The notes: generated from the letters alone by a model not told the origin. Shown: positions 37,479-53,574, counted from the stretch's first letter. The stretch: 64,000 nt of DNA from Candidatus Komeilibacteria bacterium RIFOXYD1_FULL_37_29 (GCA_001818495.1 MHKS01000005.1:116188-180187), one strand, 5' to 3'. Numbers and translations are program-made.

Positions 37479-37568
37479 GGAGAGTTCGCATAGTGGTCGA
37501 GTGCGCTCGCTTGGAAAGCGGGTAAAGTGTAAAAGCTTTCAAGGGTTCGAATCCCTTACTCTCCGCCA
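37479..37568 (+). tRNA. tRNA-Ser (anticodon GGA), CCA encoded
   Basis: GGAGAGT acceptor stem pairs with ACTCTCC-G-CCA. D-arm TAGTGGTcGAGT. Anticodon stem-loop CTCGC-TTGGAAA-GCGGG gives anticodon GGA. There is a long variable arm (typical of Ser) and a T-arm GGTTCGAATCC. Confidence 0.85.
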
Positions 37569-44893: not shown

Positions 44894-44998
44894 TTTGATA
44901 GTTTATTTTTATTAATTATACAGAAAAAATTAATAAAAAGCTACTTTGTTGTCTATTTTGGAAAAATGTTTAATATTTGCTATAATAGTAGCACCTTT

Positions 44999-46405
44999 AT
45001 GTGTACTAAGCTTATTTATCAGATAGAAAAAATATTTTATCTTTTTATAATTTTTCTGCTAGTTAGCAGTTGGTTTTTTTTGACTTGGCCAAATTGGAAT
45101 GATTTTCGACTCTCTGTTGATAAAGTTTATGCTACAGATACTAATATTTTACCAAGTACTATTGGCGCTTCTGATGATACTGGTGAAACAACGATTAACG
45201 AAATAACCACAGATAATTCTAGTGTCAATCCAGATACATTATCTGCTGTAAATACCAATGATGGTACCTATACTGTAGACAAGAGCAACACCATGCATTT
45301 TTCAGCTTTTAATACTAGTGCTATACCAGCAGCTAATAGCATAACGGCTGTAGTTTTGCATTTGCAGTATGGAGCAGAAAATGGTTATAACGGCACCAAT
45401 AGTGTTTGGTATAATATTGGAGCGGGACAAACGAACACTACTATTACGCCGACTGATATCAGCGGTTGGAGTAGCGATATAACTTATAATTTATATGCGC
45501 AAGGCGTTGATACTTTGACAGAATTGCAAAATTTACAAATGGGTTTCACATCCAATGATGGCGGAGGAGCTGACGCTGTTCATTTTGATTATTTATGGGT
45601 TACTGTGACTCACACCAATACCGCACCAAGCGCTCCTTCTCAAAACAACCCTACTAACGGACAAACTGGAGTATCCACTACTCCTACTTTTACTATGACA
45701 GCCACCGATCCAGATGGAAATAATATTGGTTATAAAGTTACCATTTATTCAAACAGTGCTTGTACAACTGTAGTGAGTACTCATGATCAAGCAGTGAATT
45801 CTACTGGTTGGGCCGGCACTAACAGTAGTTGCACTGCCAGTCCGAATAGCTGTTATACTTCGGGTACGCAAGGGAGTTTTGCTTTGCAAGCCGGAGACGT
45901 TTTGACTGTTTCTACTCAATATTGGTGGAAAGCTTCGGCTAAAGATCCAGATGGTGTAGGTGGTTTCACAGATTCAGCCACTTGTAATAGTTTTACTACT
46001 AATGCTGGCATATCTATTTCTTTATCAACTGATGGTTCAGTATCTTTTGGTGGTTTGGGGTTAGAAGCTATTTCAGATACTACAGCCGGTGGGATAAATG
46101 ATGTTGAAACAGTATCAGTTGATTCGGGGCCGGCTGATTTAAATATAAAAAGTACTGTTTTTGCGGAAGGAGCTAATACTTGGACTTTAGATACAACCAA
46201 TGGCTCTAACCAAGTGCAATGGGAATTTTCTCCCGATGGTTCTTCTTGGACTACCTTTGCCATAGCTGATACTGAATATAGTTTAGCTACTAATGTTAGC
46301 CAAGGTAATACACAAGATGTTTATTTCAGAATCAACATGCCCATTGATACTACTTCATATAATCAATACAGCTCAACGGTAACTATTGTTGCTTCAACTC
46401 CGTAG
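44999..46405 (+). CDS. large secreted Thr/Ser/Asn-rich surface protein with WxL-like C-terminal domain
   Basis: N-terminal TM/signal helix. The C-terminal ~170 aa is paralogous to the next ORF and carries TWTL ... W motifs (ANTWTLDTTNGSNQVQWEF). The start is set at ATG 44999 because the upstream ATG overlaps the promoter. Confidence 0.45.
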   Translation: MCTKLIYQIEKIFYLFIIFLLVSSWFFLTWPNWNDFRLSVDKVYATDTNILPSTIGASDDTGETTINEITTDNSSVNPDTLSAVNTNDGTYTVDKSNTMHFSAFNTSAIPAANSITAVVLHLQYGAENGYNGTNSVWYNIGAGQTNTTITPTDISGWSSDITYNLYAQGVDTLTELQNLQMGFTSNDGGGADAVHFDYLWVTVTHTNTAPSAPSQNNPTNGQTGVSTTPTFTMTATDPDGNNIGYKVTIYSNSACTTVVSTHDQAVNSTGWAGTNSSCTASPNSCYTSGTQGSFALQAGDVLTVSTQYWWKASAKDPDGVGGFTDSATCNSFTTNAGISISLSTDGSVSFGGLGLEAISDTTAGGINDVETVSVDSGPADLNIKSTVFAEGANTWTLDTTNGSNQVQWEFSPDGSSWTTFAIADTEYSLATNVSQGNTQDVYFRINMPIDTTSYNQYSSTVTIVASTP

Positions 46406-46481
46406 TATTTTTGTATATTATTAAAATTATGGTATAATACATTTAGTTAAATAGTTAAAAAATATAAAATAAACAAAAAAT

Positions 46482-46994
46482 ATGAGAAAGATTTTATCTT
46501 TATTTACAATGTCACTACTAATCACTTTTTCTTTTGGGGTAGTTACTCAAGCTGCCACAGAAGGGACAGTCACTGCTACGGTTACGGCTCAAAATGTAGC
46601 GGTTACAGTTTCTGACGGATCTATTACTTATGGGACCCTGGCTCTCTCTGGTACAGCCAACACAAATGCTGGCGGGTTAAATGATAGTCAGACAGCTACT
46701 AACACGGGTAATGTTTCATCGGATCTTGATATTAAAAGTCAAAACGGTACCGGGGGTACTGCTTGGACTTTAGCTGGTAGCATAGGGGCTGATCAATATA
46801 GGCATGATTTTTGTATTACAGATTGTGATGGTACTCCAACATGGGTGGCTATGACAACTGTTTATCAAACCCTCGCCTCTGGAGTTGCCGGTTCAGGCAC
46901 GCAAGTATTTGATACTAGAATTTCAATTCCATCATCATCTACCGATTATGTACAAAAATCAGTAGACGTTTTTGTACAAATATCGGCCGCTTAA
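46482..46994 (+). CDS. secreted WxL-like domain protein
   Basis: Signal peptide (…VTQAATEG). Paralogue of the C-terminal domain of the preceding protein (LDIKSQNGTGGTAWTLAGS...TPTWVAM). Confidence 0.45.
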   Translation: MRKILSLFTMSLLITFSFGVVTQAATEGTVTATVTAQNVAVTVSDGSITYGTLALSGTANTNAGGLNDSQTATNTGNVSSDLDIKSQNGTGGTAWTLAGSIGADQYRHDFCITDCDGTPTWVAMTTVYQTLASGVAGSGTQVFDTRISIPSSSTDYVQKSVDVFVQISAA

Positions 46995-47016
46995 TAAATT
47001 AGTTTTATTTCTAGCT

Positions 47017-47616
47017 ATGAAAAAAATAACTCTCGGGGTCTTTCTAGTAGCACTTTTTTTAGTGCCGGCTATTGTTTTAGCTAGAGTTGGTGTGGGCGTC
47101 GGCACTGGTAAAATAATTATTGAAGAGGGCTTAAACCCTGGGCAGTCTTATTTGTTGCCCAATTTTTCAGTTAGTAATACCGGGGACGAAGTGGCCAATT
47201 ATGCTTCTGGTATTGAGTATAAACAAGGTATAAAAGAACTGAATCCAGATAAAGAATGGTTTTCTATAGAACCAAGGGTATTTAGATTAGAACCAGGCGA
47301 TATGCAAAATGTTGAGGTAAGATTAAATATTCCCATTAAAGTAACGCCGGGAGATTATTTTGCTTTTGTAGAGGCACATCCAGTTGTAGATACTAAGACC
47401 CCAGGAGCTAATATTAATGTTGCTGCAGCTTCTAAACTTTATTTTACAATTAAGCCAGCCAACATTTTCCAAGGAATATACTATAAGACAGTTTCATTTT
47501 TTGTAGATAACGCTCCTTGGACCTACATAGTATTGGGAGTGTTAATTTTAGCATTAATTGTTACATTTTTCAGACAGAAGTTTAACTTTAATATTAGTAT
47601 CGGTAAGAAAAAATAG
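47017..47616 (+). CDS. DUF916-like cell-surface protein with C-terminal TM anchor
   Basis: Signal peptide, a beta-rich domain (LNPGQSYLLPNFSVSNTGDEVANY...EPGDMQNVEVRLNIPIKVTPGDYFAFVEAHPV), a C-terminal TM helix, and a KK tail. This is the architecture of the anchored partner in WxL loci. Confidence 0.35.
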   Translation: MKKITLGVFLVALFLVPAIVLARVGVGVGTGKIIIEEGLNPGQSYLLPNFSVSNTGDEVANYASGIEYKQGIKELNPDKEWFSIEPRVFRLEPGDMQNVEVRLNIPIKVTPGDYFAFVEAHPVVDTKTPGANINVAAASKLYFTIKPANIFQGIYYKTVSFFVDNAPWTYIVLGVLILALIVTFFRQKFNFNISIGKKK

Positions 47617-47629
47617 TTTTAATGAAGCC

Positions 47630-48712
47630 ATGACTAAACATTTACAGACAATGCTGTATTTATTCCCTCTATTTTTAGTGGGAATATTTTTTATTGTTAT
47701 AGATGTTTTGGCTCAGCAATCAACGGTTAGCGCTATCGTTAAAATTAGTGTCTGTGGTAATAATATTTATGAAGCCGGAGAAAGTTGTGATAATACTGAT
47801 TTTGGTGGGCGATCTTGCAGTAATTACGGATTCAATTCTGGTAGTTTGGCTTGTAACCCAGACTGTACCGTGAATACAGCTTCTTGCAGTAATGCTACGG
47901 TCAATCCGCCCGGTGGAGGTGGCAGCGGTGGTGGGGGAGGAGTTGTTGTTAAACCAACACAGGCTAGTGTTATTTTTTCAGGTAGAGCCTATCCATTGAG
48001 TGCTGTTAGTATATTGAGAGATGGGCAACTAGCGGTTACTACCATTGCTGGTCCCAATGCCGAGTTTAAAGTTACTTTAGCAGGGCTTTCTACAGGTAAT
48101 TATAATTTTTCTGTCTATAGCGAGGATAAGTATGATAATCGCTCCACTTTATTTTCTTTTCCAGTTTATGTTAGTGCTGGTTCCAGTACTGATATTAGTG
48201 GTATATTTTTGGCTCCCACTATTGATGTTGATAAAACTAGTGTTAAATATGGTGAAGATATAGCTATTTTTGGTCAAACTGTACCGGAAGGCACAGTAAC
48301 TATTAGTGTCAATTCTCCTCAAGAGCATTTTAAAAATGTTCGCTCTGGTGCCGATGGAGCATATTTATATTATTTTGATACCGCCGTTTTAGAGCTGGGT
48401 GAACATCACACTAAGGCCAAAGCCAAGCTTAAAAATGAAGTAAGTTCCTTTGGGTATGTTGTTAATTTTGTGGTTATTGATACTAATAGTCCAGATTCTG
48501 GTGGCATAGTTGGTAATAAACCCGATAATAAAAAAGAGGAGAAGGTTTATAAAGGAGATTCTAATAAAGATAGTCGTGTAAATTTGGTAGATTTTTCCAT
48601 TGTGGCTTATTGGTACAATAGATCCAATCCGCCAGCTGGCGCTGATTTAAACAATGATGGACAAGTTAATTTGGTAGATTTGTCAATCATGGCTTATTAT
48701 TGGACAGGTTAA
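47630..48712 (+). CDS. secreted protein with Cys-rich module and C-terminal type-I dockerin domain
   Basis: Signal peptide, a Cys-rich N-module, a poly-Gly linker, and a beta-sandwich region. The C-terminal duplicated Ca-binding segments GDSNKDSRVNLVDFSIVAYWY / ADLNNDGQVNLVDLSIMAYYW (about 48554-48709) make up the dockerin. Confidence 0.6.
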   Translation: MTKHLQTMLYLFPLFLVGIFFIVIDVLAQQSTVSAIVKISVCGNNIYEAGESCDNTDFGGRSCSNYGFNSGSLACNPDCTVNTASCSNATVNPPGGGGSGGGGGVVVKPTQASVIFSGRAYPLSAVSILRDGQLAVTTIAGPNAEFKVTLAGLSTGNYNFSVYSEDKYDNRSTLFSFPVYVSAGSSTDISGIFLAPTIDVDKTSVKYGEDIAIFGQTVPEGTVTISVNSPQEHFKNVRSGADGAYLYYFDTAVLELGEHHTKAKAKLKNEVSSFGYVVNFVVIDTNSPDSGGIVGNKPDNKKEEKVYKGDSNKDSRVNLVDFSIVAYWYNRSNPPAGADLNNDGQVNLVDLSIMAYYWTG

Positions 48713-48715
48713 AAT

Positions 48716-49576
48716 ATGTTTAAGATTGTTATAATTACATCCAGTTTATTTATATTTTTTGTTTGCTTCGGCGTTTCTGTCCAGGCGGCTGATTTATTTT
48801 TTTATTCAGAAAGTAATACTATTAAAACCGGTAAATTTTTTGAATTAGATGTTTTATTTAACTCGCCAGACGATATGATTAATGCTTTGGAGGGCGAGTT
48901 ATATTTTCCGCAAAATTTATTAAGTGTCATTGATATTCGTGAAAATAATTCTATTATAAATTTTTGGCTGGAAAAGCCAGTTGTCTCAGCTAATAAAATA
49001 AAATTTTCCGGCATCATTCCCGGTGGTTACCAAGGGCAAGGAAATTTATTTAAGGTAATATTTAGAGCTGATAATTCCGGGAAAGGTCAAATAGCTGCTT
49101 CTGATGTGCGAATATTATTGAATGATGGTTATGGTACGGATGTAGCGGTTAGTATCGAACCATTTGATATTGATATTTCAGAAGAAACTGTATCGCCAGA
49201 AGATATTTTAGTAGTTGATATTTCTGATCAATATCCGCCCGAACCATTTACACCGATTATTACAAAAATATCGGATATAGGCGGAGATAATTATTTGCTT
49301 ATATTTGCCACTCAAGACAAGAGTTCGGGCATTGATTATTATCAGATCAAGGAAGGGTATAGTCCTTTTATTGATGCAACCAGCCCCTATATTCTAAGAA
49401 ATCAATCTTTGGATAAAAAAATTATTATCAAAGCTGTTGATAAATCTGGCAATATTCGCCAGGTCAGCATAGCGCCAGTTTATCTTAATCATTGGTATGA
49501 AAATTTTGTATTTTTTGCTATAATAGTAGCAGTCGCAGGTTTGCTTATTGTGGGCCGAATTAGATGGAAAAAATAA
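48716..49576 (+). CDS. membrane-anchored cohesin-domain protein
   Basis: Signal peptide. The domain FELDVLFNSPDDMINALEGELYFPQNLLSVIDI...IKFSGIIPGGYQGQGNLFKVIFRADNSGKGQIAASDVRILLNDGYGTDV matches the cohesin pattern. There is a C-terminal TM helix with an RWKK tail. Confidence 0.55.
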   Translation: MFKIVIITSSLFIFFVCFGVSVQAADLFFYSESNTIKTGKFFELDVLFNSPDDMINALEGELYFPQNLLSVIDIRENNSIINFWLEKPVVSANKIKFSGIIPGGYQGQGNLFKVIFRADNSGKGQIAASDVRILLNDGYGTDVAVSIEPFDIDISEETVSPEDILVVDISDQYPPEPFTPIITKISDIGGDNYLLIFATQDKSSGIDYYQIKEGYSPFIDATSPYILRNQSLDKKIIIKAVDKSGNIRQVSIAPVYLNHWYENFVFFAIIVAVAGLLIVGRIRWKK

Positions 49577-51318
49577 AAAAGAAAATAAAAAAATTTCAAA
49601 GTAGCTTTGGTTTTTTGCTGATCGTTTTGACAGCAGTTTTTTTGTTGGCTTTTTCTGCTCAAGCCGCTAGTATTTATACTTATCCAACAACCGGGACTTA
49701 CCAATTGGGCGGCACTTTTTCTTTATCTGTTCATGTGTCTAGTCCCAATGAAGCTATTAATGCCATTTCTGGTACAATATCTTTTCCCAATGATAAATTG
49801 GAAGTAACATCTTTATCTAAAAATGGTTCAATAATAAGTCTATGGCCACAGGAGCCGGGATTTTCCAATACCAATGGTATAGTAAATTTTGAAGGTATAG
49901 TGTTAAATCCTGGATATACGGGATCAGCTGGTAAAATTTTGACAATTAATTTCAAAACTAAGGCGGTGGGTATAGCCAACATCAAGTTTAGTTCTGGATC
50001 TGTTTTGGCCAATGATGGACAAGGTACCAATGTTTTAGATAGCTTGGGAAGTACCAGTATGTCTATCGAGGTTCCTATCACTGGTCCAGCCGCCAGTGAA
50101 GCTACCAATTCACCGATCACAGTAGGTACACTACCGGCACCTCAAATCAAATCTTCTACTCATCAAAATCCAGATGCTTGGTATAATATCAATCAGCCGA
50201 GTTTTAGTTGGGAATTACCATCAGGGGTCAGCGGAGTAAGATTATTAGTTGGTGAAAAACCACAGGTCACGCCGACGGTTAATTATATACCAGCTATTTC
50301 TGAAAAAACTTTAGATGTGTTAGAAGATGGCCTTTGGTATTTTCATGTGCAGCTAAGAAATAGTGCTGGCTGGGGAGGCATAACTCATTTTAGGTTTCAA
50401 ATAGATACCAAAAATCCTGATAAATTTATTATTGAACCGCAAGTCGAAGATGATTTGACTAATCCGATCAGAAGATTTTTGTTACAAGCTGAAGACAGCG
50501 GATCGGGCATTGCTTATTTTGAAATTCAAATTGATGATAGCGAGTTAATGAAATGGGAAGATGACGGAAGTCATGTTTATCAGACACCAGCCTTAAAACC
50601 AGGCCGTCATACTTTAATTATTAAAGCAGTGGACCAGGCCGGAAACCACATTAGTAATTTTTCAGATTTTGTTATCAAACCGTTGGACAAGGTGGTGATT
50701 AGTAGTTATCCGCACCAGCTGTCTAGCAACGAAATATTTATAGTTAAAGGTAGTAGCTATCCAGATTCACAACTAATGATTTCATTGCAAAGGGAAGCAG
50801 CTACACCAAAGATCTATAATTTAAAAACAGATAGCCAAGGTTATTTTACTTTTGTGGCTGATGAAAAATTACGTGAGGGAGTTTATAAGTTATGGGCAGA
50901 AGCAGTAGACTCTCGGGGAGCGCGTAGTGATTCTTCTCAAGCCTTAACTATTTTAGTTGAGCCAACAAAGTTTTTGAAGTTTGGCACTATTACCATAGAC
51001 ATCCTATCAGTTTTAATACCGTTGATTACCTTGATATTTTCTTTTATAGTATTGTCTTGGTATAGTTGGTATAAATTGAAATCTATCAAAGTCAAGATGA
51101 GAAAAGATGTGGCCGGAGTTCACGATGTTTTGCAAAAAGAAATTAGGTTTTTAAAGATTCAGTTAAATAAGTATAGTAATATTATTAAAAAATCTAAAAA
51201 TAAAAGTAAATTAACTAAAGCTGAAGAAGAGGCCATCCAGGCTTTTGAAGAAGATATTCTAGATTCCATCAGTCGAGCAGACAAACACATTGCCGACATC
51301 CAAAAAGATCTTAGATAA
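49564..51318 (+). CDS. membrane-anchored cohesin-domain protein with extra Ig-like domains and cytoplasmic coiled-coil tail
   Basis: Signal peptide. Cohesin-like domain FSLSVHVSSPNEAINAISGTISFPNDKLEVTSL...NFEGIVLNPGYTGSAGKILTINFKTKAVGIANIKFSSGSVLANDGQGTNV. Beta-rich repeats, a TM helix (ILSVLIPLITLIFSFIVLSWY), and a ~90-aa charged heptad-like C-terminus. Confidence 0.55.
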   Translation: MEKIKKKIKKFQSSFGFLLIVLTAVFLLAFSAQAASIYTYPTTGTYQLGGTFSLSVHVSSPNEAINAISGTISFPNDKLEVTSLSKNGSIISLWPQEPGFSNTNGIVNFEGIVLNPGYTGSAGKILTINFKTKAVGIANIKFSSGSVLANDGQGTNVLDSLGSTSMSIEVPITGPAASEATNSPITVGTLPAPQIKSSTHQNPDAWYNINQPSFSWELPSGVSGVRLLVGEKPQVTPTVNYIPAISEKTLDVLEDGLWYFHVQLRNSAGWGGITHFRFQIDTKNPDKFIIEPQVEDDLTNPIRRFLLQAEDSGSGIAYFEIQIDDSELMKWEDDGSHVYQTPALKPGRHTLIIKAVDQAGNHISNFSDFVIKPLDKVVISSYPHQLSSNEIFIVKGSSYPDSQLMISLQREAATPKIYNLKTDSQGYFTFVADEKLREGVYKLWAEAVDSRGARSDSSQALTILVEPTKFLKFGTITIDILSVLIPLITLIFSFIVLSWYSWYKLKSIKVKMRKDVAGVHDVLQKEIRFLKIQLNKYSNIIKKSKNKSKLTKAEEEAIQAFEEDILDSISRADKHIADIQKDLR

Positions 51319-51383
51319 AATAAAAATAAGCTCAAAGTTAGAGCTTGTTTTTATTGTGATTTTACGCTAAAATTTATATACTT

Positions 51384-52334
51384 ATGAAGGGAAATAGGCC
51401 TAAAAAAATATTGGTTTCTGGTTCCATTGTTTATGATCGGATTATGAATTTTCCCGGTCTTTTTAAAGATCATATTTTGCCCGATCAAACGCATATTTTA
51501 AATGTTAGCTTTACTTTGGCTAGTACCAATGAAAGCTTTGGCGGTACAGCCGGCAATATTGCTTACAATTTATCCTTACTCAAAGAGCCAGTAGTTTTAC
51601 TTGGTTTAGTCGGTAGTGATTTTGAGCGTTACCGGAAGTGGCTTCAGAAAAATCGAGTAGATTTTTCTTATGTTAGAAAAGTAAAAAATACTCCGACGGC
51701 TTCCGCTTATATTATGACCGATCAGGCTGACAATCAGATTTCCGGGTTTTATCCTGGCCCAGCTGATGTGGATTATTGCGCTTTGGTTAGAAAAATAAAA
51801 AATCCGGCTCTAGCAATTGTTTCACCGGATTTTAAACCGCGCATGATCGAGTATGTCAGATTGTATAAAGAGCTGGGCATAGATTATATTTTTGATCCCG
51901 GTCAGCAAATTACTTCTTTTACGACTTTTGAACTGCGCCAATTAATTAGTGGTGCCAAAGTACTAATTGGTAATGATTATGAAATAAAATTGATCTTGAA
52001 TAAACTAAAAACTGATTTGGATAAATTGCAAAAATTGGTGGAGATACTAGTAGTGACCAAAGGCGCCCTCGGTTCGCAGATATATTTTAAAGATGAGCGG
52101 ATTGATATCGATCCCGTTAAGGTCAAAGAGGCGCTTGATCCCACTGGGGCTGGTGATGCTTATCGGGCTGGACTGATCAAAGGGCTACTTAGTGGAGCTG
52201 GTCTAGAAAAAGCCGGACGTCTGGCCAGTACGGTAGCGGCTTATACAGTGGAAGCACTTGGTACGCAAACCCATCATTTTACTTTAAAAGAATTTACTAA
52301 TCGCTATAAACAAAATTATGAAATACGACGTTAA
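51384..52334 (+). CDS. PfkB-family carbohydrate/nucleoside kinase (likely adenosine kinase)
   Basis: C-terminal [12 protein letters not shown] is the ribokinase-family anion hole. It overlaps the downstream adenosylhomocysteinase gene. Confidence 0.7.
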
Positions 52335-53574
52335 AAATTTAAAACTAGCCGAGCTCGGTAAAAAAAGAATAGAATGGGCCGACAACGATATGCCGGTTTT
52401 ACAAAATGTCCGCGCCAAGTTTGCCAAAACCAAACCTTTCAAAGGGCAAAAAATGTCCGCTTGTCTTCATGTGACCGCTGAAACCGCCAATTTAGTCCGG
52501 ACATTAAAAGCTGGTGGGGCTGATATATTACTAGTGGCTTCCAATCCTTTGTCTACTCAAGATGACGTGGCGGCTGCTTTGGTTAAATATTATAAAATAC
52601 CAGTGATGGCGATTCGCGGTGAAGACAAAAATACTTATTACCAGCATTTAAACGCTGCTCTTAAACATAAGCCAGTTATTACTATGGATGATGGGGCAGA
52701 TTTGATATCGCTTTTACATAGTAAGTACAAAGCCTGGGCACCAAATATCAAAGGATCAATGGAAGAAACTACTACTGGCGTTATCCGTCTCAAAGCCATG
52801 GAAGCTGAGGGTAAACTAAATTTACCGGTCATTGCTGTAAATGATGCTCAGACCAAAAATATGTTTGATAATCGCTACGGCACCGGTCAATCAACAGTCG
52901 ATGGCATTATTCGCGCTACCGATATACTCTTGGCCGGTAAATATGTAGTAGCTGCTGGCTATGGTTGGTGTGGTCGGGGTTTTGCAATGCGCGCTCGTGG
53001 TATGGGAGCTAAAGTAATTGTTACTGAGGTCAATAAAATTAAAGCCTTAGAAGCAGCCATGGATGGTTTTGATGTTATGCCCATAAAAGCCGCTGCCAAG
53101 ATCGGTGATTTATTTTGTACTTTGACTGGCGATATCCATGTACTGAGAGCTGAGCATTTTAAATTGATGAAAGATGGAGCGATAGTTTGTAATTCTGGAC
53201 ATTTTGATGTAGAGATTGATATCAAGGCGCTTAAAAAATTATCTTCCAAAGTGAGAAAAGGCGTTCGAAATTTTGTGGATGAGTATACTGTTGGTAAAAA
53301 AAGAATTTTTGTTTTAGCTGATGGGAGGTTAATCAATCTAGCCGCCGCTGAAGGTCATCCAGCTAGTGTTATGGATATGAGTTTTTCTACTCAAGCTTTG
53401 GCTAGCGAGTATGTCGCTAGAAATTATAAACAATTAGACAATAAAGTTTATTATGTACCGCAGAATATCGAAGAGACGGTAGCCGATTTAAAATTAAAAG
53501 CCATGAAGATTGCTATAGATAAGCTGACTCCAGAGCAAGAGAAATACCTGGCTTCTTGGAGTATTGGTACCTAA
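52318..53574 (+). CDS. ahcY: adenosylhomocysteinase
   Basis: [28 protein letters not shown], an NAD-binding domain ([25 protein letters not shown]), and C-terminal ...[10 protein letters not shown]. Confidence 0.9.

Follow-up and report, generated by a model that had tools for sequence, protein, structure and literature searches.

Cohesin and dockerin are the signature modules of the cellulosome, and in the anchoring of clostridial cellulosomes (types I and II, for example CipA, OlpA and OlpC of Clostridium thermocellum) a secreted protein with a duplicated Ca-loop dockerin is paired with the jelly-roll domain of a cell-bound cohesin. Non-cellulosomal cohesin-dockerin pairs were surveyed by Peer et al., 2009 (as cited in PMC9012536). 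For the dockerins and cohesins of anaerobic methanotrophic (ANME) archaea and of giant open reading frames (ORFs) of Omnitrophota, a function in adhesion between cells or in assembly at the surface has been proposed (PMC9012536; PMC10066038), and a groundwater metaproteome study that detected cohesin and dockerin proteins of a candidate phyla radiation (CPR) bacterium read them as a cellulosome (bioRxiv 10.1101/2021.08.21.457207). Here we describe three adjacent genes, encoding one dockerin protein (g4) and two membrane-anchored cohesin proteins (g5 and g6), in a 64-kb stretch of DNA (the window) from Candidatus Komeilibacteria (Parcubacteria, Patescibacteria), an ultra-small bacterium of the Rifle groundwater metagenome. 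Judging from the gene and domain sequences, this trio probably serves the Parcubacteria cell envelope as a dedicated docking system of non-cellulosomal cohesin-dockerin type; because no enzymes are attached to it, a cell-surface docking device is the most likely identity, rather than a cellulose-degrading machine.

The trio shares with the known non-cellulosomal pairs the use of single cohesin and single dockerin modules in an organism that does not degrade cellulose. It differs from them in that both cohesins are the N-terminal modules of proteins with a transmembrane (TM) anchor, in that the dockerin protein carries no enzyme, and in that the genes form a fixed three-gene operon across a candidate-phylum group, with discrete and matched specificity types. 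Like the ANME and Omnitrophota proteins, it brings dockerin and cohesin together in syntrophic or host-dependent microbes, where a role in adhesion or assembly has been proposed; unlike the trio, those proteins are variable, multi-domain, often multi-cohesin and scattered over the genome, with no fixed three-gene operon. The literature that we searched holds no account of a fixed operon of one dockerin and two TM-anchored cohesin proteins, and does not describe its Parcubacteria-wide conservation, its specificity cassettes or its linkage to a PapD/WxLIP-like gene. What is already known is that cohesins and dockerins occur outside cellulosomes, and NCBI names some of the homologs "cohesin domain-containing" or "dockerin type I repeat-containing".

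The dockerin protein g4 (47630..48712, + strand; 360 aa) is predicted to be secreted and consists of a signal-like segment (aa 1-28), a six-cysteine knob (aa 42-86), a poly-Gly hinge (~aa 94-105), an immunoglobulin (Ig)-like body resembling Big_6, and a C-terminal dockerin. Across 60 homologs the six cysteines of the knob, which spans ~45 residues, are invariant, and the Gly run is conserved. The dockerin module (aa 308-360; 48551..48709, +) occupies the extreme C-terminus and is built of the two tandem Ca-loop-plus-helix repeats of ~22 residues that define a dockerin, joined by a 9-aa linker. That g4 ends in a duplicated Ca-binding dockerin had been claimed in an initial annotation of this DNA, and it is borne out by Pfam Dockerin_1 (PF00404), which scores 31.1 bits where 22.9 is the gathering cutoff (E 2.8e-7, residues 308-355), and by conserved loop residues. 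The 12-residue loops, DSNKDSRVNLVD and DLNNDGQVNLVD, are followed by the helix-like segments FSIVAYWY and LSIMAYYW, respectively; Asp or Asn at loop positions 1, 3, 5 and 12 (D310, N312, D314, D321, D339, N341, D343 and D350) is invariant or at least 90% conserved among the same 60 homologs. The g4 family profile matches solved dockerins over both repeats (2y3n_B, E 3.5e-4), and a C-terminal, duplicated dockerin of the same layout is found in all 57 orthologous tails. A Pfam search found no catalytic domain in g4.

The first of the two cohesin proteins, g5 (48716..49576, +; 286 aa), is a short anchor whose sequence recurs unchanged in Candidatus Komeilibacteria bacterium RIFOXYC1_FULL_37_11. 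Its AlphaFold2 model, computed from 72 homologs (predicted local distance difference test 93.5), shows a signal helix (signal peptide aa 1-24), a cohesin domain (aa 25-155; 48788..49180, +), a linker, a second small Ig-like beta domain (aa 181-252; its OmpL47-type match is below cutoff) and a terminal TM helix (aa 260-285) that ends RIRWKK. In a Foldseek search against the PDB, the top 47 matches of this model are all cohesins (E down to 9e-12, template-modelling score on the target 0.7-0.79), the best of them including non-cellulosomal cohesins from Archaeoglobus fulgidus (2xdh) and from the GH84C/GH33 toxin complex of Clostridium perfringens (2w1n, 2vo8). The model thus shows the nine-stranded flattened beta-sandwich, or jelly-roll, of a genuine cohesin, and not the fold of a different beta-sandwich family. 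By sequence, the g5 N-terminus shares 32% identity with g6 across 173 aa (E 3e-21), Pfam Cohesin is matched by 13 of 66 g5 orthologs (E<=0.01), and the profile of those 66 orthologs matches Ruminococcus flavefaciens cohesins (E 1.7e-4).

The second, g6 (49564..51318, +; 584 aa), is a long anchor. Its signal peptide (aa 1-34) and cohesin (~aa 35-170; 49666..50073, +) are followed by a highly conserved domain that lacks annotation (~aa 185-300), by Ig domains of OmpL47/Big_13 type (~aa 305-465), by a TM helix (~aa 477-500) and by a charged cytoplasmic helix. Pfam Cohesin (PF00963; cutoff 24.1) scores 24.9 bits on the whole protein and 27.8 bits on the N-terminus alone, and is matched at E<=0.01 by 43 of 75 orthologous g6 N-termini. 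The g6 N-terminus is tied to the jelly-roll fold through its homology to g5. The cohesin assignment that had been made for both proteins therefore stands, for g6 by its score above the Pfam cutoff and for g5 by homology to g6 together with the structural model and its matches. The most conserved part of g6, residues ~185-300 (50119-50460), has no family match and carries the motifs THxxPxxWY, DGxWYFHV, GWGG and FRFQIDTxxP; the strong conservation of this extracellular domain suggests a conserved ligand.

Hydropathy shows signal-like N-terminal segments in g4, g5, g6 and the three genes upstream of them (g1-g3), and C-terminal TM helices followed by Lys/Arg in g3, g5 and g6; together with the terminal helix of the g5 model, this agrees with the earlier proposal that both cohesin proteins end in a TM anchor. 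A cytoplasmic coiled-coil tail of ~90 aa had also been ascribed to g6. What we find after the TM helix and its K/R cluster is an 84-residue tail (aa 501-584; 51064..51315, +), 39% charged, with conserved hydrophobic positions at 3-4 spacing, among whose conserved residues are L530, L550, E554, K574 and I579. This tail, whose likeness to ATP synthase subunit b is sub-threshold (whole-protein profile, E 0.04), is probably helical and is conserved; a true coiled coil is possible. The coordinates of g4, g5 and g6 agree with the gene calls on the source contigs, as the initial annotation had them, and an in-house hidden Markov model (HMM) search finds g4 to be the only dockerin ORF, and g5 and g6 the only two cohesin ORFs, in the window.

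The trio is a widely conserved Parcubacteria operon. Scanning one genome per species, we obtained g6 relatives from 345 species-representative genomes, whose loci are all of Patescibacteria/Parcubacteria type, and fetched the best 80 of these loci (labelled L with a number where one must be singled out). The lineages named among the 80 are Komeili-, Portnoy-, Wolfe-, Jorgensen-, Wildermuth-, Niyogi-, Falkow-, Nealson-, Gribaldo- and Doudnabacteria. All three families are large, with members from Patescibacteria-type sources only: for g6 there are more than 874 full-length homologs at 43-56% identity, for g4 at least 1507 homologs, and for g5 98 in a word-index search. A g5-like cohesin gene lies directly upstream of g6 in 66 of the 68 loci with room for one; the exceptions are an in-frame g5-g6 fusion and a locus without a g5-like gene. 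Further, a gene ending in a dockerin lies directly upstream of the cohesin genes in 57 of 58 loci with room: in 51 it is a relative of g4, in three it is g4 with an extra cohesin gene inserted, and in three it is an unrelated protein of 717-1792 aa that ends in the same duplicated dockerin motif. Exactly one dockerin ORF occurs within +-10 kb in 63 of 64 loci (in-house HMM). Neighbour clustering found no flanking gene, housekeeping genes included, to be conserved; it was run by single linkage, which merged g2-g6 and left antisense shadow ORFs as most of the other clusters, so that it informs on flanking genes only. The three-gene arrangement that the initial annotation had proposed to look for in related genomes is thus present in nearly every informative locus. 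That annotation had missed the conservation of the operon and its extension upstream to g3, and here to g1.

Several variants of the arrangement occur. Natural in-frame g5-g6 fusions of 866-874 aa (L019:6835-9468 and the protein clusters P0055, P0105, P0110 and P0113) place the g5 TM helix and the g6 signal segment in a topologically consistent membrane hairpin, with both cohesins outside. A third cohesin gene (438-485 aa), comprising a cohesin, a g6-like middle region, and a TM helix and tail, stands between the dockerin gene and the g5-like gene at L033:8592-9905, L049:7512-8963 and L058:6061-7515. Locus L020 carries a second complete trio (L020:17514-22551) ~5 kb downstream of the first, with an MG2-repeat dockerin protein and short and long cohesin proteins; its g6-like protein is far more divergent than the first copy (E 8e-81 vs 4e-180). 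The contigs that carry the operon in L008, L017, L020, L024, L047 and L060, and in many "uncultured Candidatus Saccharibacteria" loci, bear odd titles (Gammaproteobacteria, Methylomirabilis, Deferribacteres, Saccharibacteria), which are probably placeholders or wrong labels of metagenome-assembled genomes.

What the dockerin carries bears on whether the locus could be a minimal cellulosome, that is, a scaffold gathering polysaccharide-degrading enzymes at the cell surface. The two module types themselves invite that reading, as they did in the CPR metaproteome study cited above, and the locus is indeed like clostridial anchoring in its duplicated Ca-loop dockerin, in its cohesin jelly-roll and in its putative pairing of a cell-bound cohesin with a secreted dockerin protein. 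Beside g4, nine alternative proteins occupy the dockerin slot; all score above the Dockerin_1 cutoff (25.7-36.6 bits) and carry MG2 Ig-like repeats, up to nine of them. On g4 and these nine, Pfam searches found Big_6 or MG2 Ig-like repeats as the only domains beside the dockerin, and no enzyme domain, glycoside hydrolase, catalytic domain or carbohydrate-binding module (CBM). This absence of enzymes rules out a cellulosome in the functional sense. The locus further differs from the clostridial systems in having one cohesin per protein, no scaffoldin, one dockerin gene, and anchoring through a TM helix instead of S-layer homology (SLH) modules or sortase. We therefore rejected the cellulosome assignment, having found at these loci neither a scaffoldin with multiple cohesins nor dockerin-tagged enzymes or a CBM, and consider a minimal cellulosome highly improbable; of the term "cellulosome-like" in the initial annotation, the docking principle is what survives.

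A dockerin protein of comparable make-up has been reported from another Patescibacteria class: SEML1_0315 of the cultivated Saccharibacterium Southlakia epibionticum, which is essential by transposon sequencing (PMC10633639). It resembles the dockerin proteins of what we call below type-B loci as a Patescibacteria envelope protein that joins Ig/MG-like domains to a dockerin, a likeness of domain make-up; it differs from g4 in its neighbours, a hydrolase and a tRNA, with no cohesin genes adjacent.

The dockerins fall into three sequence types, distinguished by their residues at loop position 10 and at helix positions 16/17, reported to be the canonical specificity positions of type I dockerins (Pages et al., 1997). 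Type A (hallmark ...VNLVDFSIAAYWY...) is found in 44 loci including this window, type B (...VNSVDFSILL...) in 10 and type C (...DFSI[FL]L..WWGK...) in 4. For the type-B loci, the nearest neighbour is also of type B in 10/10 cases for the dockerin, 10/10 for the g5 cohesin and 10/10 for the g6 cohesin, vs 3/10 for the rest of g6. Type A is told from type B by 19 of 111 conserved columns in the g6 cohesin and by none of 218 elsewhere in g6 (Fisher p 3.6e-10), and the equivalent columns I112 of g6 and I100 of g5 both change to Gly with type. The discriminating g6 columns lie in four segments (57-73, 96, 108-119 and 146-148) which, by strand order in the g5 model, would correspond to beta-3, beta-5, beta-6 and beta-8, the canonical dockerin-binding sheet (8-3-6-5).

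These results must be set against a number of observations that tell against a docking system, or against the type matching as a sign of binding. The HMM searches suggested by the initial annotation placed the dockerin and the g6 cohesin above threshold and gave no Pfam Cohesin match for g5 at E<=1; g6 as a whole protein clears the cutoff by less than 1 bit, and its cohesin profile finds no solved cohesin by sequence alone. The N-terminal hydrophobic segment of g4 is long (~19 aa) and may stay uncleaved as an anchor. The non-cohesin part of g5 (stalk and TM helix) also follows type in 10/10 cases, the type-matched unit is contiguous DNA, running from the g4 dockerin through g5 to the end of the g6 cohesin, and within type A co-variation does not exceed background. 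Given this contiguity, cassette recombination or linkage alone could give the pattern without selection for binding. We had also considered distance-matrix co-variation as a sign of co-evolution; it loses force because all of g5 follows the dockerin type, and a contiguous cassette explains it equally well. Marginal HMM scores, contiguity and the lack of co-variation within type would all suit a different explanation, in which the folds are cohesin-like and dockerin-like and do not bind each other, the proteins being independent Ca- or glycan-binding surface proteins co-inherited only as neighbours. That explanation seems to us unlikely. It does not readily account for the near-universal gene order, for a dockerin that keeps to the extreme C-terminus even where the rest of the protein has been replaced, for the parallel change at equivalent positions of both cohesins, or for the recombination boundary, which in several lineage contexts sits inside g6 where cohesin and stalk meet, a position that is suggestive.

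We therefore retain the docking system as the better account of g4-g5-g6, and infer from the features above how its parts might bind, be oriented and act. The initial annotation had described an anchored cohesin with a dockerin ligand, possibly serving attachment to a partner cell; the domain assignments and membrane-anchor topology uphold the arrangement, with binding and attachment being the conditional part. The proteins g5 and g6 would be single-pass N-out/C-in membrane proteins that present their cohesins at two heights, that of g5 on a short stalk of one Ig domain and that of g6 on a long stalk of several. Once exported, g4 would form a non-enzymatic stalk of disulfide knob, Gly hinge and Ig domains, tethered to the g5 or g6 cohesin through its C-terminal dockerin by putative, Ca-dependent binding; held by that end, it would point its knob away from the cell. 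The two g4 repeats are near-symmetric and have the same residues at the recognition positions, so that either orientation, and either cohesin, may be used, as in type I dockerins with a dual binding mode. The dockerin partner appears to be exchangeable, other lineages putting MG2-repeat giants in the slot with matching dockerin and cohesin type, and the conserved cytoplasmic helix of g6 probably connects the complex to an intracellular partner. The likely role of the trio is to display an adhesive or structural fibre, for organisation of the envelope or attachment to a partner cell.

The trio is the second half of a run of six closely packed genes on the + strand (44999-51318), with intergenic gaps from g1 to g5 of 76, 22, 13 and 3 nt, in that order, and a 13-nt overlap of g5 and g6. 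Upstream of g4 lie g1 (44999..46405, +; 468 aa, secreted), g2 (46482..46994, +; 170 aa, a secreted single-domain Ig-like protein of pilin/PapD-like type) and g3 (47017..47616, +; 199 aa), in which a single PapD/WxLIP-like Ig domain lies between a signal peptide and a C-terminal TM anchor (aa 167-185). A BLASTP comparison shows the C-terminal domain of g1 (aa 335-458) to be homologous to g2 (34% identity over 130 aa, E 3e-12); the N-terminal part of g1 varies between genomes, g1-like proteins in relatives having 500-1400 aa, and g1 has no Pfam match. No Pfam model covers the family of the g2 domain, whose 785 representatives either stand alone or form the C-terminus of proteins of up to 1581 aa; the family profile gave nothing useful against solved structures. 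An invariant Trp lies in the sequence AWTL of g2, and an N-terminal extension of alternating pattern, TEGTVTATVTAQ, is present in g2 and absent from g1; a donor-strand role for this extension is speculation. For g3, PapD_N scores 17.3 bits (cutoff 23), 14 of 34 orthologs match Pfam WxLIP_PGBD (formerly DUF916; best E 2.4e-8), and the family profile matches the solved WxLIP1 of Enterococcus faecium (EfmWxLIP1, 9i25/9i1y; E 1.4e-3). Of 41 loci covered by iterated searches, 30 have a g3-like gene directly upstream of g4, and most of these 30 have a dockerin of type A or C; a g2-like domain was detected upstream in 8 of the 41. At L008:1678-2736, g2 (residues 3-136) and g3 (16-198) are both matched by one stop-to-stop ORF, which is either a g2-g3 fusion or an assembly frameshift.

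The nearest described counterpart of g1-g3 is the WxL/Csc cluster of Lactobacillales and Bacillales, which encodes WxL proteins, one small and one large, and WxLIP, of architecture DUF916-DUF3324-TM (PMC10599100). The likeness lies in a large protein with a C-terminal copy of the small domain (g1), a small protein (g2) and a TM-anchored PapD/DUF916-like protein (g3). Pfam WxL, by contrast, matches neither g1 and g2 nor 10 orthologs and 46 family members; the g1/g2 family has a single conserved W-x-L motif instead of two, the short g3 of the window has one Ig domain instead of two, and a link to a cohesin-dockerin trio has not been described for WxL loci. Because of the missing Pfam match and the single motif, we dropped g1 and g2 as WxL proteins and do not call g1-g3 a WxL cluster; they are probably a partner module without family assignment.

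These neighbours raise the possibility that the trio is half of a six-gene surface-fibre locus, in which g2 polymerises or forms a platform with g1 at the tip, g3 caps or anchors by strand insertion, and the trio organises or anchors the same structure. A chaperone-usher pilus, for comparison, is made of pilins with an incomplete Ig fold and a donor strand, a PapD chaperone and an outer-membrane usher. The tight spacing of g1-g6, with one promoter-like and one terminator-like site, speaks for such a locus, as do the frequent adjacency of g3 to g4, the match of the g3 family to WxLIP_PGBD and EfmWxLIP1, the resemblance of the g2 fold to donor-strand pilins, and the occurrence of the g2 domain alone or at the C-terminus of large proteins, as in small and large WxL proteins (PMC10599100). 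The likeness of g2 to those pilins is weak, however, and its structural matches are generic Ig-like folds; the g2-like domain is found upstream in few loci; WxL itself is not matched; type-B loci retain the trio without g3; and contact between the g1-g3 and g4-g6 halves is hypothetical. We regard the six-gene locus as a tentative proposal, less probable than a docking system that is complete in g4-g6.

A bolder version, which we hold doubtful, would have g1-g6 build a novel surface organelle of monoderm ultra-small bacteria, in which a donor-strand (pilin/WxL-like) fibre and a knobbed stalk tethered by cohesin and dockerin share membrane anchors, the g6 helix links docking or partner contact outside the cell with its interior, and exchangeable specificity cassettes diversify what is displayed.

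The two regulatory-like sites come from a consensus scan and are not evidence of function. A promoter-like TTGGAA-17-TATAAT with TG (44958..44986, +) upstream of g1 is a candidate start of a six-gene transcription unit, and a terminator-like hairpin with a 15-bp stem and a T-run (51319..51355, +) follows g6 directly. Immediately 3' of the operon (51384-53574, +), a PfkB-family kinase gene overlaps a gene for S-adenosylhomocysteine hydrolase, a pair that also follows the trio in L018 and not in most loci. Rfam matches nothing in the window but a long tRNA of 87 nt (37479-37565, +). Antisense ORFs within g5 and g6 were rejected as genes; the one at 49731-50120 (-) inside g6 is "conserved" in 54 loci, which reflects the strong conservation of the sense frame that it shadows.

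Almost nothing is known about the surface molecules of Parcubacteria and their relatives, which are abundant, for the most part uncultivated, and believed to live attached to other cells. The locus is a probable case of cohesin-dockerin docking that serves outside polysaccharide degradation, as a fixed, housekeeping-like operon and in discrete specificity types, and it cautions against a "cellulosome" annotation of such genes in candidate phyla. Being conserved, simple and reducible to three small soluble modules, it is an experimentally tractable candidate, and it suggests how Parcubacteria cells may assemble or display structures at their surface.

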